A stretch of 64,000 nt of DNA from an uncultured Gammaproteobacteria bacterium (GCA_964399675.1 CAYNRK010000001.1:137221-201220); one strand, 5' to 3'; positions 6,134-60,841 are shown, numbered from the stretch's first letter. The notes: a model not told the origin generated them from the sequence alone. Numbers and translations are program-made.

Positions 6134-6226
6134 GTAAAAGCAACATCAATAACTCAATGAGCTCAAACGGATCGTGATCGAACTGATCCGGTTGGTTTGA
6201 GCTCGCTAAATCTAAGCCGGCGTCGG

Positions 6227-6250: not shown

Positions 6251-6266
6251 TGCAACAGGAGATCAA

Positions 6267-7439: not shown

Positions 7440-7493
7440 ACGCATCTTCGGGTGCGTTCTTTCAAATAGAAAGGATCGCCTTTTAGAAGACGA

Positions 7494-8132
7494 TCAGGCG
7501 CTTGATCTGCTCAAGCGTAGAGAGTTGCCTTTGCAGGCAGCGATCATGCGGGCGCGAGTTCGCTTGACCCAGCGATCCGCTTTTGCTTTTGTGGGAAAAG
7601 CGGCAAGCAGTACTTCGGTAAACCGATTTCCTGTCTTTGGCTCACCATCAGGCCGGATAAGGCAGGTTCGATCTGGCGACTCGTACTTGGGGTCAGGGAA
7701 CAGGGGGCCGAAGTTGGACCAGCTGACTTGGATCAAGTCTTCTTTGAAGGTAAGGTTGCTGTAACCTTCTTCATCAGGTGTTACGCTGAATCCGAGCCTG
7801 TCTGCTGAGCGTTCGATGTGTTTACCGATGCGCTCTGTATCTACACAGACCGATGTGCCCACAGGGATGAAGCGGAACGTGTAACCGTTCATTGTGAACG
7901 AATGTTCAGCCGAAGCTGGGCCAACGTGCACAACAGGCAAATCATGCTCTTCACGCAAGCTGCCTGACGTGTAGTCGTCAATGGTCCATGTTGGAACACA
8001 CACCATGCCGACCCACGCTTTTGCGGTCTTGCGCGCAAGACGCGGTTTGGTAACGCGACGGTGATACATCGCCCTTGCCATAGCAAGGTGCACCTCAAGA
8101 CCTTCGTCACGATCCTTAGGTTTAGTAGGCAT
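7494..8132 (-). CDS. Hypothetical protein, high GC.
   Basis: ORF with an AAGGGGGTG ribosome-binding site before ATG at 8132. No family motif recognised. Confidence 0.45.
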   Translation of the reverse strand: MPTKPKDRDEGLEVHLAMARAMYHRRVTKPRLARKTAKAWVGMVCVPTWTIDDYTSGSLREEHDLPVVHVGPASAEHSFTMNGYTFRFIPVGTSVCVDTERIGKHIERSADRLGFSVTPDEEGYSNLTFKEDLIQVSWSNFGPLFPDPKYESPDRTCLIRPDGEPKTGNRFTEVLLAAFPTKAKADRWVKRTRARMIAACKGNSLRLSRSSA

Positions 8133-10445: not shown

Positions 10446-11849
10446 TCACCGTTTGGCAGCACCCGAGCAAAGACGCAGTGTTTCAAGATGCGATGGATCA
10501 TCGTTGATTCCCGCGCAGAGAGGTTCTTCGTATTCGATCCATGTTCCGGCTGGATGTGGGATTTTGTAACGCACAATCCCTTCTTCGGGAATGACATCCA
10601 TTTCGATCGCCCACAGCGAGTGGAAGGACAGGTTGAGGTTTCCTTCGGCTCTTGGAAGGAGCAAGGCAAAGGACGTTGGACGGGCGATATCTGAATCCGT
10701 CTGGTGTCGATCGTGAACACGGCGCCATAGTTCTATTGCTGAGATCAGCGGAACGCCGCCCTGCATATCCAAGATCCATTTGTAACTCCTCGTACCTATG
10801 ACTAACGCGAGGAGACGATCGAGTTGACGAAGTGTTTTCTCCGTCCTGTCCAGATCATCAATCCAGAAGTTCACTCCTGGCTCAAGTGGACACTGTGGAA
10901 GGAGTTCGATTCCGGCATTGATCAGCTGTCGTGCAAAGTGTGCAGACTCAGGTGTCACGTGCTCTGGATGAGAGACATGGGCTGAGAGCTTGATCTGGAC
11001 ACCGGTCTCATCACGAAACCCGGTAAGCAAGCGAACGAACTCTTCGTCAAACCGGAATGGAAGCCCAAGAAAGAGTGCTCCTGTGCAGATTCTGAAGCTC
11101 CGCAGGTACTTGGCTGTCTTGAGTTCATTGAGGATGCTTCTCCAGACGTTGTTCGACAGAAGCATTGGTTCGCCGCCAGAGAAGAGAATGTCATACACTC
11201 CGGAGAACTCCGGCCTTGTATTCCATTCTTGCACCAGCCATGCTGTCTGTTGAACCGGCTGTGGGATCCAAACAGTCTCTGACCTCCCATCCTTATGGAT
11301 TACTCGAAGCGGCTCTTGGAAACGCGTTTGCGGACCACGATAGCAACCTGCGCAGCCGATAGGACAGGATACGCGTCCTGCACCTCTACCAAGAATCGGG
11401 AGGAATGAGGCATATCCCGGTTTGTGCGTTGCTAGGTAAAACTTCCTGTGTCCTCCGTCGCGCAAAACGACTGAATTCGCCCTTTGGACACCGTAGGGAT
11501 CTGGAGCGGGTTTTAGTCCGAGTCGAGGAAGAAACTTCCTCACCCCTTCGTGTTGAAGGAGATTGAGCGGGAGAAGACTGAGGTCGAATGAACTCAGATA
11601 TTCTCTTAGCAGATCCTCTTTGCCTCGGAATTCCGGAAAGAGGTTAAGAAAGGAATCAAGGTCGCTGGACGTCAAGCGATTCTTGACATGCCATTTCCAA
11701 TCGCCCCAAGAAGATTCCTTGTCTCCAGTGTGCGAGGATTCGATTCCGATTCCGTTCCGGCCACAGAGTATTGCAGCCTCGGAATCGAGATGACGCGCCA
11801 TCCAGGCGTTGCGAGCTTGTCGCAAAGTCTCGGTTAAGAAGGTGCACAT
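10446..11849 (-). CDS. KamA-family radical-SAM aminomutase-like protein (lysine 2,3-aminomutase/EpmB family), on a high-GC island.
   Basis: N-terminal W-K-W-H-V-K-N-R motif. CPIGCAGCYRG is a CxxxCxxC 4Fe-4S site. FSGGEPML and SFRICTGAL correspond to KamA ISGGDGLL and RIGTRAP. AGGAG ribosome-binding site before ATG at 11849. About 57% GC. Confidence 0.65.
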   Translation of the reverse strand: MCTFLTETLRQARNAWMARHLDSEAAILCGRNGIGIESSHTGDKESSWGDWKWHVKNRLTSSDLDSFLNLFPEFRGKEDLLREYLSSFDLSLLPLNLLQHEGVRKFLPRLGLKPAPDPYGVQRANSVVLRDGGHRKFYLATHKPGYASFLPILGRGAGRVSCPIGCAGCYRGPQTRFQEPLRVIHKDGRSETVWIPQPVQQTAWLVQEWNTRPEFSGVYDILFSGGEPMLLSNNVWRSILNELKTAKYLRSFRICTGALFLGLPFRFDEEFVRLLTGFRDETGVQIKLSAHVSHPEHVTPESAHFARQLINAGIELLPQCPLEPGVNFWIDDLDRTEKTLRQLDRLLALVIGTRSYKWILDMQGGVPLISAIELWRRVHDRHQTDSDIARPTSFALLLPRAEGNLNLSFHSLWAIEMDVIPEEGIVRYKIPHPAGTWIEYEEPLCAGINDDPSHLETLRLCSGAAKR

Positions 11850-11977
11850 GTGTACTCCTAAGCCAAGTGGCACGTTCTTCTTATCAGAGATTGTTTTTGA
11901 AATCAATTTTTCAAACCAAACCAGCCGCTTTTACACGGCTGGTTTGTTGGTCCCAGATGGCCTGCCTGTCGGCAGGT

Positions 11978-12054
11978 TGGTGGACCCGACCGGATTCGAA
12001 CCGGTAATTCTCGGTGCTAACGCGAACGGGGTTACCAATTACCCCCACGGGCCC
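11978..12054 (-). tRNA. tRNA-like sequence. The acceptor stem with a G3:U70 pair (Ala-like), the D-arm, the T-arm GGTTCGAATCC and a CCA end are canonical. The anticodon arm is aberrant, so this is possibly a pseudo-tRNA or an integration-site remnant.
   Basis: Minus-strand read GGGCCCGTGGGGGTAATTGGTAACCCCGTTCGCGTTAGCACCGAGAATTACCGGTTCGAATCCGGTCGGGTCCACCA. The anticodon stem TTCGC/CCGAG has a C-C mismatch, and the loop GTTAGCA has a non-purine at position 37. Confidence 0.4.
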
Positions 12055-30263: not shown

Positions 30264-30296
30264 GTGAGGCGGCAGACAGCCCGTCTGCCGCCTCAC
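30264..30296 (-). terminator. Perfect 14-bp inverted repeat gtgaggcggcagac-agccc-gtctgccgcctcac. It is the terminator of the high-GC minus-strand operon and the left island boundary.
   Basis: 14-bp perfect stem overlapping the stop codon, followed on the minus strand by a U-rich tract. Confidence 0.6.
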
Positions 30297-31123
30297 GTCG
30301 TTGTTGAGTTGCCAAGCCACCAGGTTGACCGGGCAATCATGCCCAGCTCGCCTGTGTCTAGCTTGTAGTAGGGATTGAGATCGGTTGCCTTGCCGCACGA
30401 ATGTACGGGCATGCCAACCCTTGCGAAGTGGTCGACGACCTGATCGTCACCCAAGATGAGCTTTTGGTACGCACCGCGCCAGACCTTGCGGTCGGTAGCG
30501 CGGTCGGTGACCTTGACATTGATTGTCATGATGCCTGTTGTTGGGTCAAAGCGTGGGGTGCGTGCGTCGTTGACAGGGGTGCCGTCGAGTTCAGCTTGCC
30601 AGACAACAGTTTTCCCAACACGACATCGATCAAGGTAGCCTTGTCCGATGAAGTCCATGAGAAACGCTCCGTCTTTTGCCAGCGGATCGATCATGCCGCG
30701 CGTGATGCGCAGCAGGAGATCCGGATCAACAACATCACCGAAGGAGTTGCCAAGCAAGATACTCGCATCGAAGCGTTCATTAGTGCGCCATGTGGTGAGA
30801 TCTCCAATGTGGAGTTGGACACGTGGATCTTGGCCGTGGCTTTTGAGAGCCTTGGCCACGCACTTTGGCGAAAGATCTACACCAACGATTCGTTGAACAC
30901 CGGACCACAGCAGAGCGTTGATGTGTCTGCCCGTGCCAAAACAGGGCAGGAAGACGCTCCTGGGTACGTGGCCAATAAGTCGGATGGCAGTTCCGACTTC
31001 AGCCCAGGCAAGCGCGCTGTTGTCATGGACATCTCTATCGAGCTGTTCCATCACGTCATAGTGACGCGCAACATCGAACTGGGCCGGAGGTTCTGTTCTG
31101 TGTTGATGAGCGGTAGCTTGCAT
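30293..31123 (-). CDS. Class I SAM-dependent methyltransferase (high GC, about 60%).
   Basis: LPCFGTGRH...VGVDLS SAM-binding motif I and post-I acidic residue. Its start overlaps the stop of the upstream gene (TGATG). Confidence 0.65.
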   Translation of the reverse strand: MQATAHQHRTEPPAQFDVARHYDVMEQLDRDVHDNSALAWAEVGTAIRLIGHVPRSVFLPCFGTGRHINALLWSGVQRIVGVDLSPKCVAKALKSHGQDPRVQLHIGDLTTWRTNERFDASILLGNSFGDVVDPDLLLRITRGMIDPLAKDGAFLMDFIGQGYLDRCRVGKTVVWQAELDGTPVNDARTPRFDPTTGIMTINVKVTDRATDRKVWRGAYQKLILGDDQVVDHFARVGMPVHSCGKATDLNPYYKLDTGELGMIARSTWWLGNSTTT

Positions 31124-33051
31124 CACTCCCCTTGGTAGATGACCGGACCCTCTTCAGCGTCGTCAGCGCCGTGGATTCGGAAGCTACCGGTTCGCAGGGT
31201 CATGGTGGATCCAACAAGATCGACATGACCATCCGTTTCCGCGTCCCCTGAGAAGAGGAAGAACGGAGTCAGACGCGTGCGCGCACCACGATCGAGCCGG
31301 ACGTTGCCATCACTGTCGCGGTAGGCCACGGTGTAGCGATGCGAAGCAATGATGTGCTGGGCCACAACCGGGTGGGGGAGTCTGGCTCGCACAGCAAGCT
31401 CTTTTTCCCATTTCATCTGATTCTGAGCCTGGCTGCCAAGCGAAAGGCTGCGTGCACCCCAGGACTTGTTGTCGCCGTCCCAGGCACCGAACTTGGTCAG
31501 CCAGAGATGTCGCTCGTCTCTCACTTGTGGGAGAACACGATCGAGCAGACGCGTCTCTGCCACACAGTTATGCAATGTGGTGAGCGCTGCGGGATCGCGG
31601 CTTTTGATCCAGTGCATCACGTTCGGGTGCCAGAGCGCGGCCATGAGAGCCTTGTTTTCCAGACAGTGCCAGAGCGGGTTCATCATGAAGGTATCTTGGC
31701 TGTCCCAGGCGACCAGTTGATCCAGTCCTCCTGTGTTGACGAAGTTGTCGAAGTAGCCGAAGCGGAAGACAACTGTGTTCGGACCGAGCGTTTGAGGGAA
31801 ACCCTCGTCGCTGCCGTGAACGAATTCGTCGAACCCGAGCGCTTTGAGACGCCCCAGGAAGTCGCTGTTCCATGTGGCCTTGGCTGCATCAGACATGTTG
31901 TCGTGTGGCCACCAGCCTTTCCGTGTCAGCTTTGAGGGGCCGCCGCGCTGGCGAACCGCATCGTGGATCTGTTGAAGGGGCGTGTCGAACCAGATCTCGG
32001 CATCAAGGCCGCGCTCGCGAAGAGCAGCAACGAAGACGGCCTGATCCCACACGTACTCAGCCCATTCGTTGGTGGCGAACACGATGAGTTTGCGACCATC
32101 CAGTAGACGGACGTAACCGTCCAGCATGGTTGTGTCCAGTCCGTAGCCGAGCTCCATGGCGTGCGACATACCCTGTCCGGCAGGGCAAGATTCGAACTCA
32201 GTGATGACCGGGCGGAGTACGCCAGTCACCGGGTCCTTGACCACTACGATGTCCGGTCGCATGAGCATGACCGGGCCGCCTTGCATGAGTGCGGGAATAC
32301 GATCCGGGCGGCCATGATTGAGGATGTGCTGGACGCCGGGATTGCTTTTGTGCAGCGCATGGATCGCCTTGAATGCGAGTGCAAGCGCTTGCCCAAGCTC
32401 TCCCAACTTGTCCAGGAAGTACGTGGGCAGGGTGAAGGGATCGATGAGCTGGCGCCAGGAGACGCCACTGAGCCCTTTGTACCCAATACCAGTCTTGTTC
32501 ATGCGAACGCGCGCGGCCTCGACCTTGTCGCCGGCCGGTTGATTGACTCGGCGGACATGGGGTCCAGCGGCTTCTGCTTCTTGCCAGCCGTCAACGAGCT
32601 CAGGCTCGATGAGCAGGGCATCAGCCAGGTTGAGGCCATGGCCTCCAACTGTGGGCATGTTCTGGATGTCTACCCAGCGGCGCTCGATCGGATGCTCCAG
32701 GGGGCGACCTCGCCTGCCTTTTGTGTCGGTTCGACTTCCTGTTGTCCAGTCAAAACCGAGCATTGCGAACTTCACCTTCAGCGCGTCCAGGATAGGTCCG
32801 TTCTTGGGCCAGGTATCTGACTGTGCTGGAATGGCTACTCCGTTGTCTGGTAGTGTGCTGCCGCTGAGCACCTTGTTGCGCCATTCCCTTGTGGAGCGCT
32901 TGACACCGGATCCTCTCTCAGGACCACTGAGACCATGCTTGCGTCGCATCTCAAGCACCCTTTCGGGCACCACGACCGTGCTCTGGCCTCGTCGGCGTCT
33001 GGTGTTCCAAGTTGCGCCAGTTGTCTGGGAGGTCCTCGTGACTGAGTGCAT
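31123..33051 (-). CDS. Large protein carrying a glutathionylspermidine-synthase-like (GSP_synth/YgiC-YjfC family) ATP-grasp amide-ligase domain in residues about 250-600. The first ~200 residues are Arg-rich and of unknown function.
   Basis: RPDIVVVKDPVTGVLRPVITEFES (compare YgiC [22 protein letters not shown]), ENKALMAALWHPNVMHW (compare [20 protein letters not shown]), and WLTKFGAWDGDNKSWGA (compare VVKPIFSREGANV). GGAGAAAG ribosome-binding site before ATG at 33051. About 62% GC. Confidence 0.55.
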   Translation of the reverse strand: MHSVTRTSQTTGATWNTRRRRGQSTVVVPERVLEMRRKHGLSGPERGSGVKRSTREWRNKVLSGSTLPDNGVAIPAQSDTWPKNGPILDALKVKFAMLGFDWTTGSRTDTKGRRGRPLEHPIERRWVDIQNMPTVGGHGLNLADALLIEPELVDGWQEAEAAGPHVRRVNQPAGDKVEAARVRMNKTGIGYKGLSGVSWRQLIDPFTLPTYFLDKLGELGQALALAFKAIHALHKSNPGVQHILNHGRPDRIPALMQGGPVMLMRPDIVVVKDPVTGVLRPVITEFESCPAGQGMSHAMELGYGLDTTMLDGYVRLLDGRKLIVFATNEWAEYVWDQAVFVAALRERGLDAEIWFDTPLQQIHDAVRQRGGPSKLTRKGWWPHDNMSDAAKATWNSDFLGRLKALGFDEFVHGSDEGFPQTLGPNTVVFRFGYFDNFVNTGGLDQLVAWDSQDTFMMNPLWHCLENKALMAALWHPNVMHWIKSRDPAALTTLHNCVAETRLLDRVLPQVRDERHLWLTKFGAWDGDNKSWGARSLSLGSQAQNQMKWEKELAVRARLPHPVVAQHIIASHRYTVAYRDSDGNVRLDRGARTRLTPFFLFSGDAETDGHVDLVGSTMTLRTGSFRIHGADDAEEGPVIYQGE

Positions 33052-36713: not shown

Positions 36714-36929
36714 ATGGCAAAAAAGAGACCAAAGGTCAGTTACGATTCAGATGCAAAGATTCTTTCTATAAGAGTTTCGTCTAAAAAAAGTGTGGATTCA
36801 GATATTCATGGTAATGTTGTTGTTGATTATGGAAAAGACGGACAACTTGTGAACGTTGACATTATGGACATATCGCTCTCGGAGTTTAAACGAGAACCAG
36901 TTATTAGAAAAATAATCGCCACAGTATAA
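36714..36929 (+). CDS. DUF2283-family small protein.
   Basis: YDSDAKILSIRVS...GNVVVDYGKDGQLVNVDIMD pattern typical of DUF2283. Confidence 0.5.
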   Translation: MAKKRPKVSYDSDAKILSIRVSSKKSVDSDIHGNVVVDYGKDGQLVNVDIMDISLSEFKREPVIRKIIATV

Positions 36930-36950
36930 AAGTTTTTTAATAAAAAAATC

Positions 36951-36977
36951 AAAAAACCGGCCTTAGGTCGGTTTTTT
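36951..36977 (+). terminator. Terminator aaaaaaccggccttaggtcggtttttt.
   Basis: GC stem with A/T flanks. Confidence 0.5.
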
Positions 36978-37075
36978 AAATTGGATTTTTTTGATATAAT
37001 AATTTCTGTCCAAACACCGGCTTGGTTGCGCATAGCCAAGAAGGGCATTGAACAACGAGCGACAAGGAGGACACC

Positions 37076-37645
37076 ATGCGAGCACTCTTGCCTGACAGAG
37101 GGCGAGTCATCGGGTTCTGCGTCCTGATCAGCGCGATGCTGTTGCTGGCCGCAGTACCGGCAACCGCGGAGGTGAAGGCGACCGACCAGTCCCACGACGC
37201 GGACTCGGGGGTCATCTGCTTCCTGAACAACGACGCCAGCCAGGAGCTGACCTGCATCAACCGACGCGCAGAGTCGGACATGTGGGCGATCACCTGCGCG
37301 CTGCGGGACGGCGGCAAGTGCCTGAGCCGAGACAGCGAGCTCATCCTCGTGGACGGCAACCGCTTCATCATGCGAGACGGTCAGCTCATCCTCTGTGACG
37401 GCAACCGCTTCATCATGCGGGATGGGCAACCGCCGTTCATCATGAGGACACCAGCAACAGCTATGCTCCTGCTCAAGGAGATCGGGATGAACCACCCGGC
37501 GGTGGCGCTCCTGATCATGATGCGCGACGAGTTCATCATGCGCACGCCAACAACGCTCGCGCTCAAGAAGTGGCGCGGCGCAACCCAAGCGGTGTCCAAG
37601 GCCGAACTCACGGACGGGACCGCTCCGTTCTCGTTCTGCGTGTAG
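37076..37645 (+). CDS. Secreted/exported protein with tandem FIMRDGQ repeats, on a very high-GC (about 62%) island.
   Basis: Signal peptide MRALLPDRGRVIGFCVLISAMLLLAAVPATA. Repeat LIL(V/C)DGNRFIMRDGQ x2 plus FIMRTP x2. Confidence 0.45.
   Translation: MRALLPDRGRVIGFCVLISAMLLLAAVPATAEVKATDQSHDADSGVICFLNNDASQELTCINRRAESDMWAITCALRDGGKCLSRDSELILVDGNRFIMRDGQLILCDGNRFIMRDGQPPFIMRTPATAMLLLKEIGMNHPAVALLIMMRDEFIMRTPTTLALKKWRGATQAVSKAELTDGTAPFSFCV
37333..37422 (+). repeat. 45-bp perfect-ish tandem duplication (ctcatcctc[gt]tg[gt]gacggcaaccgcttcatcatgcg[ag]ga[ct]gg[tg]ca[ga]) x2.
   Basis: Directly visible at 37333-37377 and 37378-37422. Confidence 0.75.
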
Positions 37646-37783
37646 CGCGACCCCGGCGCAACGCACGAGACAACGGCTCCACACTCAAGGGTGTAGAAAA
37701 GCTGACTTCGGTCGGCTGCTCCTGCATCCTTTTTCATTTTCTTGTGTTTCCAAAGAGCTTTCTGTACATTGAATAGCACAACT

Positions 37784-41634: not shown

Positions 41635-43728
41635 ATGCCTAGATCATACTCACTTGATAAAATTCGCAACTTTGGAATTTTTGCGCACATTGATGCCGGA
41701 AAAACAACCGTGTCAGAGCGCATCCTGTTTTACACAGGAAAGAAACACAAAATTGGAGAGGTGCATGAGGGAGAAGCAACAATGGACTGGATGGAACAAG
41801 AGCAAGAGCGTGGGATCACTATCACATCTGCTGCAACCACAGCATTTTGGAAAGATCACCGTTTAAATCTTATTGATACTCCGGGTCACATTGATTTTAC
41901 TGTTGAGGTAAAACGTTCAATGCGAGTTCTTGATGGAGGTGTTGCTGTGTTTGATGGTGTTGCAGGTGTTGAACCACAGTCTGAAACCAACTGGCGATAT
42001 GCGGATGAATATAAAGTTCCAAGACTTGTTTTCATTAACAAACTGGATAGAACCGGAGCAGATTTTTACAAGGACCTAGATTCTGTTCACGACCGATTAA
42101 CAAAAAACGCACATCCGATTCAACTTCCTATTGGTGCTGAGGCAAATTTTTCAGGTGTGATTGATCTTATTAAAAATAAGGCTTTTATTTATAAAGATGA
42201 TCTTGGGCGTGAAATTGAAGAAACAGAAATTCCAGATGATATGAAAGCATTGGCAGAAGAGTGGCGAGGAAAACTTTTTGAAGCTGTTGCAGAAAACGAT
42301 GAAGCATTAATGAATAAATATCTTGGAGGCGAAGAGCTTGATATTAAAGAAGTGAAAGCTGTTATTAGAAAAGCAACAATTGCAAATGATTTTATTCCAG
42401 TGCTTTGTGGGACTGCTCTAAAAAATAAAGGAGTACAGCTTTTGCTTGACGCTGTTGTAGATTATTTGCCAAATCCATTGGAAGTACCACCTGTTCAAGG
42501 TATTGATCCGGATGATGAGGAAAAGGTACTTACACGAAAGGCAGATGACAATGAGCCTTTTGCTGCTCTTGCTTTTAAAATTGCTGCAGATCCGTTTGTT
42601 GGAAAGCTTGCATTTTTCCGCGTGTACTCAGGTATGGTCAAAGCTGGTTCTTATATTTTGAATTCATCAACAGGAAAAAAAGAACGTGTTGGACGCATTG
42701 TGCGCTTGCACGCAAATTCACGTGAAGAAGTGCCTGATGTGTTTGCCGGAGAAATTGCTGCAATGGTTGGACTTAAAGAAACATTTACCGGACACTCGCT
42801 TTGTGATCCGGATCATCCAATAATTCTTGAGGCCATTACATTTCCAGAGCCGGTTATCTCGATTGCGATTGAACCAAAAACAAAACCAGACCAAGAAAAA
42901 ATGGCTATTGCACTTCAAAAGCTTGCTGAAGAAGATCCAACTTTCCGTGTTCGAACAGACGAGGAAACAAATCAGGTTATTATTTCAGGAATGGGAGAGT
43001 TGCATTTGGATATTATTGTCGAACGTCTTAAGCGCGAGTTCAGTGTTGAATGTAATGTTGGAACACCGCAAGTTTCTTATCGAGAAACAATCAAGGGAGA
43101 TTCAGAAGGAGAAGGAAAGTATATTCGACAAACTGGTGGTCGCGGACAGTATGGTCATTGTCAGGTCAAAATTGAAAAGTTAGAACCAGGTTCTGGAATC
43201 GAATTTGAAGAAAAGATTAAGGGAGGCTCAGTTCCGCGCGAGTACTTTAATGCAATTGAAAAAGGGTACAGAGAAGCAACCGAACGTGGTGTTATTGCTG
43301 GGTATCCAATTCTGGATGTAAAAATGACTTTGCTTGATGGAAGTTATCACGAAGTTGACTCTTCAGAAGCTGCCTTTAAGATTGCCGGTTCTATGGCATT
43401 CCAGGATGCTGCAAAGAAAGCAGGTCTTGAGTTGCTTGAGCCAATGATGAAAGTTGAAGCTATAACACCGGAAGATTTTATGGGAACTGTTGTGGGAGAT
43501 TTAAATGCAAAGCGAGGACAGATTCAGGAAATGTCGGATCGGTCCGGGGCAAAGGCGATTTCAGCTTTTGTGCCGCTTGCAGAAATGTTTGGTTATGCAA
43601 CAACACTTAGATCGCTTACCCAAGGTAGAGCAAGTTATTCCATGGAATTTGATCATTACAGTGCAGTGCCATCAAATGTTGCAAAAGAAATTATTGAAAA
43701 ACGTGGAGGTGGTGGTTCGAAAAAATAA
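41635..43728 (+). CDS. fusA: Elongation factor G.
   Basis: [22 protein letters not shown] and domains II-V. Confidence 0.95.
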
Positions 43729-44303: not shown

Positions 44304-45341
44304 ATGACTGTTTCAAAAAAGGTATTAGCTCAATATGAGATTGGAAAAGTGAAGTCAGTAAAGCCAGTTGAATCTGGTTTGGTTCATAATACGTTTGCAA
44401 TCAAAACATCTACCGGTGATTATATCATTCAAAAGCTTCATCCCATACTTTCTGATCAAGGAACAGCCAGAGATTTTTTGGCTGTGGCTGAACATCTTGA
44501 AAAGGAAGAATTTTTAGCACCCAAGTGTGTGCTTAGTAAAACAGGGAAAGTTTTAGCTCGTGAAGGAAAAGAGGTTTGGAGAATGCAAACAAAATTGTCA
44601 GGCAACACATACGACGTTATAAAGGATCTTTCAATGCTCAGAGAAGCTGGAAAAATTTATGCGCAGTTTCACAAGACAATGGACCACATGGATTATAAGT
44701 TTAAATCAAAATTGGTTTTGCACGAGACAGAGAAGATTTATAAGAAGTTTTTAAAAATTCTCCCCCTTTTCAAGGGGGAGTTAGAGGGGGTTAGTAATGA
44801 GGTTGAGTTTATAAAAAAAGAATTTCCAAAATATTTTTTGCCAAAAAGTTTGCCGCTTAGAGTAATTCATGGAGATCCAAAAGTATCGAATATTTTGTTT
44901 AAGAAGGTCCCCCCCCTTTTCAAGGGGGGGTTAGGGGGGGTTACCGCTGCTGCAATTATTGATTTGGATACTTGTAGTCGCAGTTCGATTCTGGTTGAGC
45001 TTGGCGATGCGTTTAGATCCTGGTGTGGTAATGAAGAAGATGATCCAAAGAACAGGTTTTGTCTTCGCAAGTTTCGTTCAGCTTGGTCTGGGTATAAAAA
45101 AGGCTCTGATGGGTTTTTAACAGCCAGAGAAAAAAGTTTGATTCCAAAGTGTATTGGTACAATCACACTTGAACTAGCTTGTAGATTTTTAACAGATTAT
45201 TTTGAAGATAGTTATTTTGGTTGGGACTCAAAGCGTTACAAATCCAGAAAAGAACATAACTTGGCGCGATGCCGCGGACAGATAAAAGAGTTTCAAGATT
45301 ATAAAAAAAAGCTTTCGAAAATAAGAAGAGTGGTCAATTGA
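44304..45341 (+). CDS. APH/choline-kinase-like phosphotransferase (protein-kinase-like fold), with two in-frame PPF-element insertions.
   Basis: Catalytic HGDPKVSNILF (HGDxxxxN) and IIDLDTC (DxD). Insertions LPLFKGELEGVS at 44757-44792 and PPLFKGGLGGVT at 44903-44945. Confidence 0.6.
   Translation: MTVSKKVLAQYEIGKVKSVKPVESGLVHNTFAIKTSTGDYIIQKLHPILSDQGTARDFLAVAEHLEKEEFLAPKCVLSKTGKVLAREGKEVWRMQTKLSGNTYDVIKDLSMLREAGKIYAQFHKTMDHMDYKFKSKLVLHETEKIYKKFLKILPLFKGELEGVSNEVEFIKKEFPKYFLPKSLPLRVIHGDPKVSNILFKKVPPLFKGGLGGVTAAAIIDLDTCSRSSILVELGDAFRSWCGNEEDDPKNRFCLRKFRSAWSGYKKGSDGFLTAREKSLIPKCIGTITLELACRFLTDYFEDSYFGWDSKRYKSRKEHNLARCRGQIKEFQDYKKKLSKIRRVVN
44757..44792 (+). repeat. PPF element copy (in-frame, phosphotransferase gene), first.
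   Basis: ctcccccttttcaagggggagttagagggggttagt. Confidence 0.8.
44903..44945 (+). repeat. PPF element copy (in-frame, phosphotransferase gene), second.
   Basis: gtcccccccctttTcaagggggggttagggggggttacc. Confidence 0.8.
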
Positions 45342-45374: not shown

Positions 45375-45634
45375 GTGTTAGCAAAAACAAAACAACTCCC
45401 GATTGAGAGTCGTTTCTTGTCCACCGAAGCCTCTTGGCGAAGGTGGATACATCTGAATGTTGAGATTTCGTTTCAGGCTTGCAGTGTTACTTTATCCTGT
45501 TCATCAACCTCTTTCCTGTGCAGCTATAGTTCAGATGTCTTCTGTTTGGACTAATCCAGACAGGTATCACGTGATTGCACAAGAGGGAATACTACCATAT
45601 ATAGGCGATTTTGTCAACCCCAAAGAGTCATTTC

Positions 45635-45672
45635 CCCCCTTTTCAAGGGGGGATTAAGGGAGGTTAGCATAA
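45635..45672 (+). repeat. PPF element copy, intergenic, at the left edge of the 45.7-49.4 kb high-GC island.
   Basis: tccccccttttcaaggggggattaagggaggttagcataa. Confidence 0.8.
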
Positions 45673-45719
45673 AATAAAGCAAATTGAAAAGCCCGCCTTT
45701 TGAGCGGACTGAGTGGCTG

Positions 45720-47057
45720 TTAGGCCGGGAGTTCGTAGCGGACTACGTGGAAGGTATTGTCGACTACGAACCAGCTCATCACAGCATGACCATCGACCTC
45801 AGTGAGGCGATCGAAGTCTGAGTAGAGCGGGAAGGTGCCGACCCCAGAGATCGAGTAAGGAGGCATCCTGGACCAGGAGAAGATGTCCGAAGAACCGCCT
45901 GCCCACATGGTCAATCCATCGTGGAGCCGGCGATATATGGGAATGTGTCTGGTGGTAACCGCTGGAGTGACGAGCGACTCAACGCCGTCTTCTGAGAACC
46001 ACACGACAGGTCTGGCCTGGTTTCCATCGGCTTCGTGTCCGATGATCGCGACGCCATTGGGGAGCACAACAATGTCTTCAACGGACAAGATGCGTTTGTG
46101 AGGGAGTCGGCGATTGCTGGCTGAATGCTCGCGCAGGGTGAGCGTCTTCCCATCATCTGAATGTACCCAGAACGTCCTGCCATCTTTCGCGAAGATCTTG
46201 TCATTGCGACAGAATCCATTCCCACCCATCCCATTGGGGGTATGGGAGTTCAGGTAGTTGCCATCAGTTGTGCTGACATGCAACACACCGTCATCATCAA
46301 GGAACAGGCTGTTTGGGATGATCCGATCTTCGTTCCTGAGCTTGATCACCTGACGGCCAAACAGAACCTCTTTGTAGTCTGAACAGCGATGTACAATCGC
46401 AGGAGTGTTATCGCTTCTTGCGACCTTGAGAACGGTTCGTTCGTCCTTTGCCCAGAGAACATCTTCTTCAAAGACCAAGCGGCGGTGTTCCTCACTTTGG
46501 CAGAAGACCCGCACAAACTGTTGGCGATCGTCGGATCTGTCATTTCCTGGGTCAAAGGAAACTGCACACCACTTCGAGCACCCTGCTGTCCAGAAGGTTG
46601 GCGCTTCGATCGGGGTCAGATCCAGATCGAATTCCCAGTCGCCCCAACGAACACCGAAGTGCTCAGCTTCTGCATCTGTGTAAACGAACGCCAGTTTGTT
46701 GCTTCCCTCAGGGAAGTGCGGGTACAGAAGATTGTCTGTATTGTCGATCGGTTCAGAAAGACCCGAAGTAGCTGTCCAGGTTCGAACACCCCGCTTTTGA
46801 TCCCCCACGGCACTGCAGACAAGCGCGATCGTTCCGTCGTGTGCAATGCACACGCTGTCATGGATCACGTTGACTCCTGGCGGGAGTCGAAATGCGTGCG
46901 TTACGTGCGGAGGCAGGCCGATGGGCTTTCCAGCAAGAACTTTGACCGCCTGTTCAAGTCTACCTGGACTGACCTTGCCTGGATGAGCACCAAGGTATAC
47001 AAGGATTTGCGCAAGCGCTTTTTCTCTTCGTGTTGGTCCTACTACTGGACTTGCCAT
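45720..47057 (-). CDS. Hypothetical protein (445 aa), high GC (about 58%).
   Basis: Long ORF. No motif recognised. Confidence 0.5.
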   Translation of the reverse strand: MASPVVGPTRREKALAQILVYLGAHPGKVSPGRLEQAVKVLAGKPIGLPPHVTHAFRLPPGVNVIHDSVCIAHDGTIALVCSAVGDQKRGVRTWTATSGLSEPIDNTDNLLYPHFPEGSNKLAFVYTDAEAEHFGVRWGDWEFDLDLTPIEAPTFWTAGCSKWCAVSFDPGNDRSDDRQQFVRVFCQSEEHRRLVFEEDVLWAKDERTVLKVARSDNTPAIVHRCSDYKEVLFGRQVIKLRNEDRIIPNSLFLDDDGVLHVSTTDGNYLNSHTPNGMGGNGFCRNDKIFAKDGRTFWVHSDDGKTLTLREHSASNRRLPHKRILSVEDIVVLPNGVAIIGHEADGNQARPVVWFSEDGVESLVTPAVTTRHIPIYRRLHDGLTMWAGGSSDIFSWSRMPPYSISGVGTFPLYSDFDRLTEVDGHAVMSWFVVDNTFHVVRYELPA

Positions 47058-47202
47058 GATGAAAGGTCCTTTGCCCGGTCAAAAGACTTACATTTGCGCC
47101 GAAGTTTTCCCCGGACGCACTTGATTGCTTTTGCCGAACTTTAGTGATTGCCACGGGATTGTGACGAAGTTATCTCAACACAATCCATATTTTGAGTCAA
47201 TA

Positions 47203-47246
47203 AATTAAATTGAAAAGCCGTTCGTCACCAGGTGGTGTCGAACGGC
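47203..47246 (-). terminator. Terminator gccgttcgacaccacctggtgacgaacggc plus cttttcaattt (minus-strand sense), 3' of paralog 1.
   Basis: 8-bp GC stem with a nested cacc/ggtg stem. Duplicated at 48401-48444. Confidence 0.6.
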
Positions 47247-47278
47247 TCGTGAGTGGTTGTTGCCCTGAAAGGGCTTGT

Positions 47279-48217
47279 CTACGGCGTGGCCGCGGCCGGC
47301 TCGGGCTCGCTCGCGGTCGGGTCGCCGTTGGTCGGCTTGGCCTCGGCTTCGGGTTCCTCCGCGGTCTCGTCCGCTTCGGACTCCTTGATCTCGGGCGCCA
47401 GGTGCGCGTGCAGGTCCTCGATGCCGTAGGTGGGCGCGGCTGCGCTGAGCTCGGTGAACACGCTGCGCACGACCGTGTCGAAGATCTCGTCCTGCCGCCG
47501 CTCCCACAGCTCGTTGAGCCACTCCTGGAACTCGTGGAGCAGTGCATCGTAGTACGAGCCGGTTGGGTCGAAGCACGCGATCGGGATGTTGTGATCCTCG
47601 CGAGCCACCTGCTGGGCACGCTCGTGCTCGTGCTGGTATACCCCCATGTCTTTGTCGCTGGCGTTGGTCACCACCGTGAGCTGGTTTCGGTGGAGGCCGG
47701 TCAGCGCCTCTATCGCTCCCATCGGGCCGTTGTTGCCGACCGCGATCAGTTGCACGCCGTGTGCATCAAGGGCGCGGTCGTTGTTGAGACGATCGAAGAA
47801 GATCGCACGGATCAGCGGAACGAGCCGCTTGACCAGCGGTTCCTCCTTGCGCCAGCCGTACTCGAGCTCGCTGCTCAGTTCCTCGCGCAGATCCACGAGC
47901 GTGCTGCGCAGGGTCTCGGTCAGGAGCTCCCTGGTCGCGGCCGCGTGCTTCTTCCTGGGCGAGCGTACGAACACCATGCCGGCGTCCACGCTGTGATGCA
48001 GCTCGTAGAGGCCGCTACAGAGCGGACCGTCGTGATCCACGACTGCGGTTTCAGCCAACACCTGGATCCTGCCCGTGGTGGCTGAGTTGAACATGGGTGT
48101 GGTGTTGCACACCACGACCACGCCGGTGTCGGCATCAATCTCCACGCAGATCCGTACTGCCGCGGTGATCGGGTCTGCTGCCACGTCCCTCAGTGACTGT
48201 GTGCTAACGTCTGACAT
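47279..48217 (-). CDS. Hypothetical protein, paralog 1 (312 aa). Acidic Pro/Glu-rich C-terminal tail. High GC (about 63%).
   Basis: About 35% identity to 48475-49401 over the N-terminal 230 aa. The last ~75 aa are nearly identical (FDTVVRSVFTELSAAAPTYGIEDLHAHLAPEIKESEADETAEEPEAEAKPTNGDP). Confidence 0.5.
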   Translation of the reverse strand: MSDVSTQSLRDVAADPITAAVRICVEIDADTGVVVVCNTTPMFNSATTGRIQVLAETAVVDHDGPLCSGLYELHHSVDAGMVFVRSPRKKHAAATRELLTETLRSTLVDLREELSSELEYGWRKEEPLVKRLVPLIRAIFFDRLNNDRALDAHGVQLIAVGNNGPMGAIEALTGLHRNQLTVVTNASDKDMGVYQHEHERAQQVAREDHNIPIACFDPTGSYYDALLHEFQEWLNELWERRQDEIFDTVVRSVFTELSAAAPTYGIEDLHAHLAPEIKESEADETAEEPEAEAKPTNGDPTASEPEPAAATP

Positions 48218-48400
48218 CTTAGCCCCTATGTTTCAGTATTGGCGAGAGACCATCCAGGTTTGCCAGGTTCCTGGAATAGAAACGGACATAGTTGTCCGCA
48301 ACGAACAGAATATAGCAGAGATTTGGGCGGATGTCAATGGTTGAACTGAGCATATTTAACTAAAGAATTGAGAGATTTTGAGAGTAATTACTTAAATTGA

Positions 48401-48444
48401 AAAGCCGTTCGTCACCAGGGTGGTGTCGAACGGCTCGTGTGTTG
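48401..48444 (-). terminator. Duplicate of the 47203-47246 terminator, 3' of paralog 2.
   Basis: Same hairpin, with one extra G. Confidence 0.6.
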
Positions 48445-48474
48445 TCGTTGCCCTGAAAGGGCTTATAGCTCAGG

Positions 48475-49401
48475 CTAGCCCGGCGAAGCGGCGGTCTCGG
48501 CCTCGGGCTCGCTCGCGGCTGGGTCGCCGTTGGTCGGCTTGGCCTCGGCTTCGGGTTCCTCCGCGGTCTCGTCCGCTTCGGACTCCTTGATCTCGGGCGC
48601 CAGGTGCGCGTGCAGGTCCTCGATGCCGTAGGTGGGCGCGGCTGCGCTGAGCTCAGTGAACACGCTGCGCACGACCGTGTCGAACAGGGTCGGAGCGTGC
48701 TCGACCCAGAGCTCGTTCAGGTAGTTCTGGAACTCGCGGAGCAGCGCGTCGAAGTACGTACCGGTCGGGTCGAAGCAGTGCACTGCGATGTTGTTGTTCT
48801 CGACCACCTCGCTCGCACGTCGCTTCTGTGCCTCGCGTGCCTGGCTGCTTCCGCATTCGCAGCCGGGAGGGCAGCCGCCCTCGAGCATCGCCATGATGCC
48901 TTCGGGGCGACCCTGACCCACGGCCACGAGCTCGATCGCGTTCCTGTTGAACGGCCGCCCTTCCTTGATGCGGTCGAAGATCACGCGTCGCAGCTGGCCG
49001 GGCAGCCACTCGAGCAGCCGTTCTTCGCTGACCCACCAGTCGGTGAGCTCTTGGGCGAGCTCGGCGTGCAGACCGGGCAGCAGGCTGATGACCAGTCCGG
49101 TCAGCATCTCTCTGGTGCTGGCCGCGTGCGTCTTCCTGGGTCCCTGGATGAACACGATGCCACCCTCGATGCTGTACCGCATCGTGTAGTCGCCGCTGCA
49201 GAGCGGAGCCTCGTGCTGTCCGGCCTCTCGTGTGAGCTTGTCCGTGATCTTGTCCGCGGTCGACCACGCCATTGCTGGCTCGGTGGCCACAACCACGACC
49301 TCGCGTCCTTCGGCCCTGACCCTGAAGGTCAGCTGCACGCAAGCGTGGATCGGTTCGTCAGCGACCTCTCTGGGGCTGGGGAAGCTGATGTCTATCGACA
49401 T
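48475..49401 (-). CDS. Hypothetical protein, paralog 2 (308 aa).
   Basis: See paralog 1. It contains a Cys cluster GGCPPGCECGSS that is absent from paralog 1. Confidence 0.5.
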   Translation of the reverse strand: MSIDISFPSPREVADEPIHACVQLTFRVRAEGREVVVVATEPAMAWSTADKITDKLTREAGQHEAPLCSGDYTMRYSIEGGIVFIQGPRKTHAASTREMLTGLVISLLPGLHAELAQELTDWWVSEERLLEWLPGQLRRVIFDRIKEGRPFNRNAIELVAVGQGRPEGIMAMLEGGCPPGCECGSSQAREAQKRRASEVVENNNIAVHCFDPTGTYFDALLREFQNYLNELWVEHAPTLFDTVVRSVFTELSAAAPTYGIEDLHAHLAPEIKESEADETAEEPEAEAKPTNGDPAASEPEAETAASPG

Positions 49402-49547
49402 GGTGTCTTTGCCTTTTCATCTTGTATTGGCAGGTTGGTCTAGGCTTGCCAATAACCTAGACAAGAAGCAGACGAACATGTCCGCAACGCACGAATGCTA
49501 CAGCAAAACACATAAATTGTCAAGGGTTTCTGGAATAAAAAATTTGC

Positions 49548-49575
49548 TTGACAGTCCAATAAAATAAGCTAAAAT
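49548..49575 (+). promoter_or_regulatory. Sigma70 consensus-like promoter TTGACA-16-TAAAAT, 10 nt upstream of the 49585 ATG.
   Basis: ttgaca at 49548 and taaaat at 49570. Confidence 0.6.
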
Positions 49576-49584
49576 GCTCGCACT

Positions 49585-50037
49585 ATGAACAATCAATTTC
49601 AAAGAATTCTAAATCTTGTAAAAAAGACCGGCGATAGGCTTGTTGTAACTGATCAAGACGGTGAAAATACCTATGTGGTCATGGATATTGATGACTACGA
49701 AATGCTTGTTGATTCAGAAAACATGCCTCTTTTTGATGAGGACGATTATGAAGACTTTGATCTTCATGATGAAGTTGAGCCAGAAGAAGGCCAAACAAAA
49801 GAAATATCTGAGCCTCAAGACATCTGGAATGTTATGCAGTCTGCAGAAGATGGGGGAGAAACATGGGATCCATCAACTCTCTCAGAGGAAGAACTTTCAG
49901 ATTTGGAAGAGCAATATCAAAAATTTGCCGCTCGAAACATAGAACAAGCAATTGAAGAAGTGGTCCCTGAAGCTCCTAAAGTTGAGGAAAAACCAGACAT
50001 TGCAGAAGAGGAATTTTACCTTGAGCCAATTGAGTAA
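49585..50037 (+). CDS. Highly acidic hypothetical protein (150 aa, pI about 3.5).
   Basis: Strong promoter. N-terminal 40 aa mixed, then D/E-rich. Confidence 0.45.
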   Translation: MNNQFQRILNLVKKTGDRLVVTDQDGENTYVVMDIDDYEMLVDSENMPLFDEDDYEDFDLHDEVEPEEGQTKEISEPQDIWNVMQSAEDGGETWDPSTLSEEELSDLEEQYQKFAARNIEQAIEEVVPEAPKVEEKPDIAEEEFYLEPIE

Positions 50038-50199: not shown

Positions 50200-51393
50200 A
50201 TGGCTGAAGTCTTTGACCGAACAAAGCCACACGTTAATGTGGGAACCATTGGTCACGTTGATCATGGAAAAACAACATTAACGGCAGCTATTTTGGTTGC
50301 GTTAAAAGAAAAAGGTTTGAGTGCCCAAACAAAGGGTGTTGATGACCTTGATAAAGCCCCTGAGTCAAAAGCTCGTGGAATTACTATTGCCACAGCTCAC
50401 TGTGAGTACGAGTCTGCAAATCGTCACTATGCTCACGTTGACTGTCCAGGACACGCTGACTACATTAAAAACATGATTACCGGTGCCGCTCAGATGGACG
50501 GTGCGATTTTGGTTGTAAATGCTGCAGATGGCCCAATGCCACAAACTCGAGAGCACATCTTGCTTGCAAAACAAGTTGGTGTACCGGCAATGGTTGTCTT
50601 TCTTAATAAAACAGATCAAGTGGATGATCCAGAGCTTATTGATCTTGTTGAAGAGGAAGTTCGAGATCTTTTGAAAAAATATGAATTTCCTGGAGATGAG
50701 GTTCCAGTAATTCGTGGATCTGCTTTGAAAGCTCTTGAGAACCCAACAGATGAAGAGGCAGTAAAACCAATTCTAGAGCTTGTTGAAAAACTTGATACAT
50801 ATATTCCAGAGCCGGTTCGTGAAACAGACAAGCCATACCTCATGCCTATTGAAGATGTGTTTTCAATTGAAGGTCGTGGAACTGTTGTTACAGGTCGAAT
50901 CGAGCGTGGAATCGTCAAGGTGGGAGAAGAAATTGAAATCGTTGGGATCAAAGAAAAAGCAAAGAAAACAACAGTGACAGGAGTTGAAATGTTTAACAAG
51001 TCACTTGAAGAAGGGCGTGCTGGAGACAATGCTGGAATCTTGCTTCGTGGTATTAAGAAAGAAGAGGTTGAGCGCGGAATGGTTTTGGCTGCACCTGGAT
51101 CCATTACTCCACACACAGAAATCGAGGCAGAAGTATATGCTTTGACAAAGGAAGAAGGTGGTCGTCATAAACCATTCTTCAAAGGCTACAAGCCGCAGTT
51201 TTATATCCGAACCACAGATGTAACAGGTGATGTGACTCTTCCGGAAGGAACTGAAATGGTCATGCCGGGAGATACGGTCAATTTAACGATCAAGCTCATT
51301 CATCCGGTTGCTCTTGAAGAAAAGATGTCTTTTGCTATCCGAGAAGGTGGGCGAACTGTTGGGGCAGGAATCGTAACTAAAATTATCAATTAA
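50200..51393 (+). CDS. tuf: Elongation factor Tu.
   Basis: [22 protein letters not shown]. Full length. Confidence 0.95.
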
Positions 51394-59339: not shown

Positions 59340-59696
59340 ATGACACGAAAAATTAAGGACAAACCAACACTAAAATCTCGCCGAGCAATTAGGACTCGTG
59401 CGCGACTTCATGGTACAAAGAAACGACCAAGACTCAGTGTTTCAAGAAGCTTGCGTGCTATCTCAGCGCAACTCATTAACGATGATAAGGGCGAGACATT
59501 AGCCGCTGTTTCTGACAAAGGGTTGGCTTCAGCACTTAAACCGGTTGAAAGGGCTAAAGAGGTTGGAAAGAAAATAGCAGAGATTGCAAAAGAAAAAGGA
59601 ATTGAATCTGTAATCTTTGACAGAGGATCGAATCGATATCACGGGCGTGTTGCAGCAGTTGCAGAGGGCGCTAGAGAAGGTGGACTCAAAATTTAA
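59340..59696 (+). CDS. rplR: 50S ribosomal protein L18.
   Basis: Conserved L18. Confidence 0.85.
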
Positions 59697-59700
59697 TGAT

Positions 59701-60387
59701 ATGACAGAACAAACTATAAAAACAGCAACCAAGAAAGGTTCAGCCACCAAGACCAAAAAGAATGAAAAAGGTAAGGGGCGTGGGCGCGGACGTGGCAAGG
59801 GCCGAGGGCGTCAAAGAGAAGTTCGAGAGTTCGAACAAAAGATTTTGGATTTATCCCGTGTTACTCGTGTGACTGCTGGTGGAAAGAGAATGTCATTCCG
59901 CTGTGCTCTTGTTATTGGAGATAAAAAAGGACGTGTTGGACTTGGTGTTGCAAAAGGAGCTGATGTGCAAATTTCAGTTGAAAAAGCTTATAAGCAAGCC
60001 AAACGAAATTTGGTAACAGTGCCACTTGTTAATGAAACAATTCCACATCTGATTTGGGTAAAGTATGGTGCAGCTCTTGTTATGCTCAAACCAGCTCCAG
60101 AAGGAACCGGGCTTAAATCTGGTGGTGCAATGCGTATGGTGCTTGAGTTTGCTGGTGTTCCAAATGCTGTGACCAAGATTGTTAATTCAAGTAATAAGAT
60201 TAATATCGCTCGGGCAACATTAGAGGCGATTAAGCAGTTGAGGAAGGTGGAAAAGGTGGAGAAGGTAGAAAAGGGAGAAAAGGTAGCCCCAGGCTTTAGC
60301 CTGGGCGAAGAAGTCAAAGAGGTCAAAGAAGCCCGAGAGGTGAAAGAGGTTGAAGAGGTTAAAGAAGCGAAGGAGAAAGTAGAATAA
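59701..60387 (+). CDS. rpsE: 30S ribosomal protein S5 with a basic N-terminal extension and a (KVE)n/KE-rich C-terminal tail. The tail contains an in-frame GPSL element (VAPGFSLGE).
   Basis: S5 core REFEQKILDLSRVTRVTAGGKRMSFRCALVIGDKKGRVGLGVAKG. Tail KVEKVEKVEKGEKVAPGFSLGEEVKEVKE. Confidence 0.85.
   Translation: MTEQTIKTATKKGSATKTKKNEKGKGRGRGRGKGRGRQREVREFEQKILDLSRVTRVTAGGKRMSFRCALVIGDKKGRVGLGVAKGADVQISVEKAYKQAKRNLVTVPLVNETIPHLIWVKYGAALVMLKPAPEGTGLKSGGAMRMVLEFAGVPNAVTKIVNSSNKINIARATLEAIKQLRKVEKVEKVEKGEKVAPGFSLGEEVKEVKEAREVKEVEEVKEAKEKVE
60284..60308 (-). repeat. GPSL element copy (reverse orientation) inside the rpsE 3' tail.
   Basis: The reverse complement is cgcccaggctaaagcctggggctac, identical to the truB copy. 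Confidence 0.8.
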
Positions 60388-60391
60388 TTGT

Positions 60392-60841
60392 ATGTCATTA
60401 ACACTTCACAATATTCAGCCAAAAAAAGGTTCCAAAAAGACCAAGAAACGAATTGGTCGTGGTTTGGCTAGCAAAGGTAGATATTCAGGACGGGGTCTTA
60501 AAGGGCAGCGTGCGCGTTCTGGTGGAAAGTCAGGTTTGAAATTGAGGGGTTTGCGTCAGGTCATGTTGGCAACGCCAAAGAAACGTGGTTTTAAGAGTCA
60601 AAAACCAAAGCCGGAAGCAGTTAACTTGGCGACAATTGCAAAGTATTTTGCAAATGATGCTAAAATTACTCCAAAGATTTTGATTTCCCGCGGCCTTGTT
60701 GATAAATCACCGGCCGGTGTAAAGATTTTGGGTCGTGGAAATATTACAATCAAGCTTACAGTCTCAGATTGTTATTTGTCTGCAGAGGCAAAGAAGAAAA
60801 TCAAAGCGGCCGGTGGAACAGTCATTGAAAAAACAAAATAG
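60392..60841 (+). CDS. rplO: 50S ribosomal protein L15. No L30 gene precedes it.
   Basis: Conserved L15. rpsE to rplO is a 4-nt gap. Confidence 0.85.
   Translation: MSLTLHNIQPKKGSKKTKKRIGRGLASKGRYSGRGLKGQRARSGGKSGLKLRGLRQVMLATPKKRGFKSQKPKPEAVNLATIAKYFANDAKITPKILISRGLVDKSPAGVKILGRGNITIKLTVSDCYLSAEAKKKIKAAGGTVIEKTK

Follow-up and report, generated by a model that had tools for sequence, protein, structure and literature searches.

The sequence analysed here is a stretch of 64,000 nucleotides, referred to below as the window, deposited from an uncultured Gammaproteobacteria bacterium (GCA_964399675.1 CAYNRK010000001.1:137221-201220). It is about 40% GC with host genes mainly on the plus strand, and the region of interest lies within the str/S10 ribosomal cluster, where the gene order is fusA (41635-43728), a methyltransferase gene on the minus strand, an APH-type kinase gene, three minus-strand open reading frames (ORFs), a gene for an acidic protein of 150 amino acids, tuf (50200-51393) and rpsJ. 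Of the three ORFs between fusA and tuf, two are tandem paralogs and are found at the positions given in a first-pass annotation made from the sequence alone: A (47279-48217) encodes 312 amino acids and B (48475-49401) encodes 308, each protein having an isoelectric point (pI) of 4.7. The GC content at third codon positions (GC3) is 0.85 in A, and the values for the three codon positions (GC1/2/3) are 0.66/0.47/0.86 in B. The third ORF, of 445 amino acids, is described further below. As judged from the sequences, it is likely that A and B are tandem paralogs whose 3' ends were recently homogenised by non-allelic gene conversion, and that the C-terminal tail they share is not a conserved module.

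Overall the two proteins are 49% identical (BLASTP, E = 1e-86), but this figure averages two very different parts. Over codons 1-245 identity is 39% in protein and 55% in DNA, a level at which silent sites are saturated; the paralogy reported earlier is thus upheld, at slightly more than the 35% or so then estimated for the N-terminal part. Over codons 246-305 identity is 98% in both protein and DNA. This tract, at 47300-47482 in A and 48502-48684 in B (both minus strand), is 183 nucleotides or about 61 codons long with 3 mismatches, and its longest perfect run is 134 nucleotides. Its upstream edge is sharp: identity falls in a single step at 47483, from at least 98% to 60-77% over the 200 nucleotides immediately upstream. 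Where the two proteins carry the same residue, the codon used is also the same at 57 of 59 positions in the tract, compared with 58 of 92 upstream (P ~1e-9). The final 7-9 codons and the stop region (47277-47299) are again diverged, with a length difference of 12 nucleotides, and beyond them the 3' untranslated region (UTR) of A (47199-47276, with a small hairpin just past the stop codon) is about 93% identical to that of B (48386-48464, which holds the terminator hairpin), whereas the regions upstream of the two genes, comprising promoter, leader and first codons, are about 76% identical by column. The earlier description of near-identity over the last 75 or so codons and the following 75 or so base pairs, including a terminator, was therefore right as to the near-identity and the terminator; the coding part is shorter, at about 61 codons, and the extreme C-terminus does not belong to it. 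Identity that extends to synonymous sites and untranslated sequence points to the copying of DNA, since selection on the peptide predicts neither, and it is these features, together with the sharp boundary, that favour gene conversion.

Each paralog is predicted to form a complete transcription unit, with a promoter, a leader bearing two hairpins, a coding sequence and a strong terminator. The promoter-like site of A (48309-48337, minus strand) consists of TTGACA, 17 nucleotides and TATATT with an extended -10 TG, matching the consensus at 11 of 12 positions; that of B (49495-49523, minus strand) has TTGACA, 17 nucleotides and TAGCAT (10 of 12) and stands back-to-back with a promoter-like site of the acidic gene (49548-49575, plus strand). 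The 5' leaders, both on the minus strand, are homologous. That of A (48218-48302, about 85 nucleotides) has a stem-loop at its predicted 5' end and a second hairpin, UCCAGG...CCUGGA; that of B (49402-49488) has the same two hairpins, the second reading UCUAGG...CCUAGA, so that one change has occurred on both sides of the stem and pairing is kept. The intrinsic terminator of A (minus strand) has 15-base-pair arms at 47216-47230 and 47233-47247 followed by TTTT (fold z-score -6.7), and that of B (minus strand) has arms at 48403-48417 and 48421-48435 (fold z-score -4.9). The 13-mer GGCTTTTCAATTT ends the terminators of A, B and the 445-amino-acid gene alike. Because both copies carry matching promoter, leader, coding sequence and terminator, with homologous leaders, the duplicated segment is, on these predicted elements, the whole unit of about 1.19-1.20 kilobases (kb), and the homogenisation of its 3' end came afterwards. 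No third copy of the 3' cassette or of the A/B proteins was found within the window, and neither these proteins nor the 445-amino-acid protein show paralogy to the other GC-rich ORFs of the window.

Relatives of the family are very few. Using curated thresholds for Pfam and NCBIfam and E < 0.01 for PHROGs and PADLOC, no match of A, B or the 445-amino-acid protein passed in any of the four, and a PDB sequence search gave no match. A word-indexed search of 5.8 billion protein clusters with A, the 445-amino-acid protein and a profile of A, B and a protein designated P0006 returned, among accepted matches, only the queries themselves apart from P0006. An exhaustive phmmer search with B against 1.84 billion representatives found the proteins themselves and one credible relative, again P0006 (E = 2e-6), which was also recovered by profile match; two further matches, P0007 and P0008, are repeat proteins and were judged spurious. 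P0006 itself has no match in Pfam, NCBIfam or PADLOC, and for the 445-amino-acid protein no relative was found in any collection searched. DNA-level scans of GTDB genomes and IMG/VR revealed no further relatives, nor did tblastn of B, the 445-amino-acid protein and P0006 against phage and plasmid records. A DNA-level scan of JGI metagenome contigs also returned nothing, a result of low weight as the source organism itself was not returned by that collection. Residues 16-84 of A align to Pfam DUF7259 (PF23920), covering 69 of 77 profile positions at 14.6 bits (E = 0.03); as the cut-off is 27 bits and neither B nor P0006 matches, membership was rejected. The earlier remark that the family could not be placed is borne out, in that no clear homology to a well-characterised family emerged.

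P0006 is a protein of 340 amino acids, 24-29% identical to A and B, encoded on L010, a 4.4-kb ENA contig from ERR2281804. On this contig its gene is divergent from a homologue of the acidic gene, which is followed by tuf and rpsJ, so that it occupies the same site as B; the back-to-back TTGACA promoters are the same, and P0006 has its own terminator. The two organisms share 87% identity in the EF-Tu protein and 77% in its DNA. As P0006 is only 24-29% identical to its counterparts at the same site while EF-Tu is 87% identical, the family is, on the sequences at hand, old at this locus, very fast-evolving and effectively an orphan with two known loci. After P0006 lies a further ORF with a strong Shine-Dalgarno sequence and a weak, in-register alignment to the family (hhalign E = 0.007), and thus the tandem pair may be ancestral.

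GC-rich DNA of this kind holds long ORFs on both strands, and it might be argued that A and B are not genes at all, the true products being the plus-strand ORFs 47210-48085 and 48604-49443, or that the region is an assembly chimera. The ENA annotation of one contig (L007, 7004-9237) indeed calls ORFs of 277, 83 and 291 amino acids on the strand opposite to A and B. In the minus-strand frames, however, GC1/2/3 is 0.67/0.43/0.85, that is GC3 > GC1 > GC2, while in the plus-strand frames GC1 is 0.83-0.85 and GC3 is 0.64-0.67, the mirror image of a real GC-rich frame. Given this pattern, the homology to the syntenic protein P0006, which the minus-strand products alone show, and the placement of promoters, Shine-Dalgarno sequences and terminators, the minus strand is the coding strand of A and B; the L007 calls are on the wrong strand, a mis-annotation through which the real products are missing from some protein databases. 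For A, the JGI annotation starts later and gives 301 amino acids; the 312-amino-acid start is favoured because it allows the N-terminus to align with those of B and P0006 and is preceded by an AGGGG Shine-Dalgarno sequence. As to a chimera, the 4.3-kb region is 99.9-100% identical across nine contigs from three assembly sources (JGI, ENA and Logan), showing that the junctions are real and that the organism is a near-clonal population; an assembly artefact was ruled out on this basis. A literature search on the sample accessions returned nothing. Altogether the suggestion that A and B are not genes is barely credible.

A different account of the shared 3' end is that tail and terminator form a selected unit, either a signal for secretion or targeting at the C-terminus or a transferable 3' cassette placed behind variable N-terminal domains, both of which had been raised in the first-pass annotation. 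The tail is acidic, rich in proline and glutamate and predicted to be disordered, as are some C-terminal export signals; no signal peptide or membrane segment is visible in the sequences of A and B; and the pair has a variable front part and a constant rear part. Yet a selected peptide would not account for identity at synonymous sites and in the untranslated 3' region, and the extreme C-terminus, where export signals usually lie, is the very part that A and B do not share, their final 7-9 residues being different. Furthermore, the C-terminus of P0006 is unrelated and non-acidic, without a Pro/Glu-rich tail, strains of the organism carry three amino-acid changes in the tail, and the cassette occurs nowhere else in the window. 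A conserved module is therefore improbable, and the nucleotide identity needs no selection on the peptide.

Those strain differences bear on gene conversion more directly. Comparison of the window with JGI contigs over 20.9 kb revealed only three differences, at 47380, 47386 and 47389, which span 10 nucleotides and all lie inside the A tract; at each the window allele is the same as B. One contig (L004) differs additionally at 47375, also in the A tract, and there too the window allele equals B. The three differences are non-synonymous, the tail residues changing from I to V, K to E and S to P. Within 21 kb, strains vary nowhere but inside the homogenised tract. Its clustering is most simply seen as the mark of a templated event, for which B would be the simplest donor, although donor and direction are ambiguous. 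With this proviso the polymorphism joins the synonymous-site and 3'-UTR identity and the sharp boundary in favouring the suggestion, first made from the sequence, of recent gene conversion.

The composition of the three ORFs is a separate matter and is harder to explain. The host looks to be an uncultivated bacterium with a small genome of about 40% GC, of the candidate phyla radiation (CPR)/Patescibacteria type; within 59617-60841 the S5 gene is followed 4 nucleotides later by the L15 gene with no L30 gene between them, an arrangement which fits such genomes. Neighbouring host genes are 38-43% GC with GC3 of 0.26-0.34, while A and B are 65-66% GC with GC3 of 0.85, and the 445-amino-acid gene has GC3 of 0.58. 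One-kilobase windows over 47001-49000 are 60-61% GC; elsewhere they range from 33 to 60% owing to other GC-rich blocks. A and B prefer CTG/CTC, GGC, GAG and GTG and use more arginine than lysine, the opposite of host genes. GC3 is 0.77-1.0 along the full length of both and peaks at 0.9-1.0 in the 3' third. The spacers within the island, in contrast, are 41-46% GC and carry host-type promoters, so that the GC enrichment is confined to coding sequences. P0006 is also enriched, though less so than A and B (GC3 0.68, compared with 0.47-0.56 in its genome); P0006 and the ORF after it have GC3 of 0.63-0.68 and almost no sequence similarity to each other. The genome carrying L010 is the GC-richer of the two and yet holds the less GC-rich copy. 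Other blocks of 50-62% GC occur in the window at 7-909, 4687-8132, 10446-11906, 30293-33051 and 36827-37684, mainly on the minus strand and mostly consisting of genes without a Pfam match. Among them are a GEGE-repeat protein (7-909) and a 642-amino-acid protein beside a methyltransferase; none is related to A, B or the 445-amino-acid gene.

One possibility is that the block 45720-49401 was acquired recently and horizontally, the donor being GC-rich (an actinobacterial host or its phage, for instance), and that duplication followed arrival, the 3' ends being simply the least diverged part. The GC3 of 0.85 against about 0.3 in host genes, the preference for CTG, GGC and GAG, the excess of arginine over lysine and the presence of several more GC-rich blocks of orphan genes in the window would all be expected from this, and genomic islands and horizontal transfer are reported to be common in Patescibacteria (PMC12455944). 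However, no relative was found in the genome, phage or plasmid collections searched; there is no integrase or transposase gene, no adjacent tRNA gene (the only one is at 11978) and no flanking repeat; the spacers and promoters are host-like at 41-46% GC; and the corresponding site in the one relative whose locus was compared holds a homologue, tuf being 77% identical in DNA between the two organisms. The more AT-rich genome holds the more GC-rich copy, contrary to amelioration, and the step from 55% to 98% identity is unlike the uniform divergence that would follow a duplication. Such an acquisition is therefore doubtful, though of the alternatives considered here it is the one to be taken most seriously. 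The label of a high-GC island of about 61% GC is correct as a description; as a single recent insertion it is questionable, given that a B-type gene is syntenic in a fairly distant relative.

The opposite possibility is that the genes were inherited vertically and that their high GC3 arose in place, through GC-biased gene conversion or selection for GC-rich mRNA, with conversion between A and B driving the extremes. This would be consistent with a locus that is syntenic in two lineages, with enrichment in coding sequences only, with a GC3 of 0.85 in the converting pair compared with 0.63-0.68 in the dissimilar P0006 and its neighbour, and with values that peak (0.9-1.0) in the 3' third, the part showing conversion; recombination and GC content have also been documented to be linked in bacteria (Lassalle et al. 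2015, PMC4450053). Against it, the single-copy 445-amino-acid gene and unrelated single-copy blocks are also GC-rich, GC3 is already 0.77-0.87 in parts of A and B too diverged to convert, the strain patch, if it went from B to A, moved towards AT, and the comparison covers two loci. An origin in place is unlikely, less probable than acquisition.

It appears that no simple scheme accounts for the composition. The AT-rich spacers, the synteny and the missing donor homologue are at odds with one recent import of GC-rich DNA; a GC3 of 0.85, where the silent sites of the genome stand near 0.3, is at odds with ancient vertical descent; and the high GC of the single-copy 445-amino-acid gene and of the other orphan blocks is not accounted for by biased conversion between A and B. 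As partial explanations, foreign origin may be entertained tentatively, and forces acting in place with still less confidence. A more elaborate and improbable idea is that, in this clade, GC-rich, self-contained expression units have repeatedly landed or been exchanged beside the acidic gene upstream of tuf, that A, B and P0006 represent a new fold family of rapidly evolving proteins engaged in interactions, for example with the host cell, and that GC3 is actively maintained; if this were true, an unsampled gene pool would be the source of the units, and their GC3 would be kept by biased conversion or selection on mRNA rather than being a leftover of recent transfer.

The reading preferred here, gene conversion within a tandem pair, can be put as a sequence of steps. 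Three separately transcribed, lineage-restricted accessory genes would lie between fusA and tuf, of which A and B would be tandem copies of one whole transcription unit that then diverged to about 39% protein identity. Some 61 codons together with the 3' UTR and terminator would later have been re-homogenised by RecA-type copying of one paralog into the other, the shared acidic tail being a by-product of this copying of DNA. The GC-rich coding sequences would most likely have come from a GC-rich gene pool, a step we infer and one that conflicts with the synteny. Several observations weigh against this scheme. The three JGI-specific bases also match a quasi-repeat 27 nucleotides downstream in the same tail, which fits the JGI allele at 16 of 21 positions and the window allele at 13 of 21; the JGI allele could therefore have been derived by local templated mutation, in which case the polymorphism would not record a B-to-A event. 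The diverged stop-codon region lies between near-identical blocks, so that two conversion tracts or later insertions and deletions must be assumed. Finally, a foreign origin of the coding sequences is strained by the syntenic homologue in a relative and by the host-like, AT-rich spacers and promoters, and no homologue in any GC-rich organism was found in the collections searched.

Tandem duplication and partial concerted evolution are known processes, as are blocks of atypical composition, and A and B are a new example of them. Gene conversion leading to concerted evolution among duplicated bacterial genes was reportedly reviewed by Santoyo and Romero in 2005, and the tufA/tufB pair of Salmonella is a case of it. 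Like that case, A and B show a sharp-edged block of near-identity within diverged paralogs which extends to silent and non-coding sites, in copies that are close together on the same replicon; they differ in that only the 3' 183 nucleotides and the 3' UTR are homogenised and in that the family is an orphan rather than a housekeeping one. The block also resembles the islands of Patescibacteria (PMC12455944) in comprising hypothetical genes of atypical composition beside translation genes in a small genome without L30, but it has no mobility genes or flanking repeats, no donor was found, a homologue stands at the same site in a relative, and only the coding sequences, not the spacers, are GC-rich. 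With GC-biased gene conversion (PMC4450053) it shares the coincidence of the highest GC3 in the window with the converting pair, while the non-converting regions of A and B and their single-copy neighbours, being also GC-rich, set it apart. A and B thus offer a clean natural case of partial concerted evolution in a tandem pair from an uncultivated small-genome bacterium. They also suggest caution in annotation, as an apparently conserved C-terminal module can be an artefact of DNA copying and one public annotation is on the wrong strand. The combination of a coding-only GC3 of 0.85 with host-like flanks and a syntenic homologue could inform ideas of composition evolution or gene acquisition in CPR-like genomes.

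The structure of the proteins was predicted with AlphaFold2. From the single sequence of B the mean predicted local distance difference test score (pLDDT) was 38; from an alignment of the three sequences it was 70, with a predicted TM-score (pTM) of 0.57. The latter model has a beta-beta-alpha-beta-beta unit at residues 21-86, two long helices at 93-146, a disordered loop at 166-184 (Cys-rich in B only) set in a small beta/alpha segment, long C-terminal helices and a disordered tail at 272-308. With this model, none of the Foldseek matches in PDB or BFVD reached significance. Those ranking highest in PDB are RNase PH-like exosome subunits (2ba1_G, 3m7n_H and 6h25_C), aligned over about 95-107 N-terminal residues with probabilities of 0.6-0.84, E values of 0.14-0.9, TM-scores of about 0.2 and root-mean-square deviations of 5.5-6.8 Å. 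A resemblance of the N-terminal part of the family to RNase PH-like domains consists of these weak matches, which lack significance and have no counterpart in a Pfam sequence match; it may be taken as a lead, not as evidence of membership. As to function, the near-consensus promoters, the hairpins at the 5' and 3' ends (taken as protective), the speed of divergence, the fact that duplicates were kept and the restriction to a single lineage prompt a guess, in which little confidence is placed, that A and B might be strongly expressed, soluble acidic proteins engaged in a fast-evolving interaction, for example with a host cell or a phage.

The 445-amino-acid gene (45720-47057, minus strand) is 54% GC and is preceded by the Shine-Dalgarno sequence AAAGGA. 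It is followed by a terminator-like hairpin (45690-45710, minus strand), which ends in the 13-mer mentioned above; having its own Shine-Dalgarno sequence and its own terminator, it is separate from A and B. Just downstream of this terminator lies a copy of a palindromic repeat, the PPF repeat (45636-45671, plus strand). The repeat is about 36 nucleotides long, with a core CCCCTTTTCAAGGGGG followed by a GGGGGGTTA-like motif, and six copies are present in the window, starting at 2036 (minus strand) and at 17415, 21053, 44763, 44913 and 45636 (plus strand), where 0.5 would be expected by chance. The APH-like kinase gene (44304-45341) contains two of these in frame, translated as PLFKGELEGV and PPLFKGGLGGV. 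The PPF element had been proposed as the point of entry to the island. The proposal reflects position only: the element has no partner at the far end, and the five other copies occur at various places in the window, the kinase gene holding two, so that it was rejected as a boundary.

On the other side of the block lies the acidic gene (49585-50037, plus strand), whose product of 150 amino acids has a pI of 4.05 and a sub-threshold Phd/YefM-like N-terminus (25 bits where Pfam requires 29.8, and 15.6 bits where TIGR01552 requires 20.8). In both organisms it immediately precedes tuf and is transcribed divergently from B or P0006, the acidic-gene locus being 49548-50037 in the window and 2245-2875 on L010. 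Its promoter-like site ends about 10 nucleotides before the ATG, and the predicted mRNA may be leaderless. The conserved divergent layout of the A/B family with this Phd/YefM-like gene suggests, from gene arrangement, possible co-regulation. A type II toxin-antitoxin pair was considered and rejected, as the antitoxin likeness is sub-threshold, the gene is divergent from B and is followed by tuf, and A and B match no toxin family.

A few further observations concern the surroundings of the block. No Rfam family was found in the study region. In the 380-nucleotide gap between the kinase gene and the 445-amino-acid gene there is a candidate small RNA of about 200 nucleotides (45385-45582, minus strand), with a promoter-like TTGACA, 17 nucleotides and TAGTAT with TG (45617-45589), a terminator at 45416-45389, a fold z-score of -3.4 and no Rfam match. 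The sole tRNA gene of the window (11978-12054, minus strand) is called as tRNA-Ala with the anticodon AGC, which is unusual for bacteria. In the kinase gene, the JGI assembly L005 has one G fewer in a run of seven (44930, within the repeat copy at 44913), which splits the gene into ORFs of 125 and 209 amino acids; this may reflect either true variation in the length of the homopolymer or an error of sequencing.

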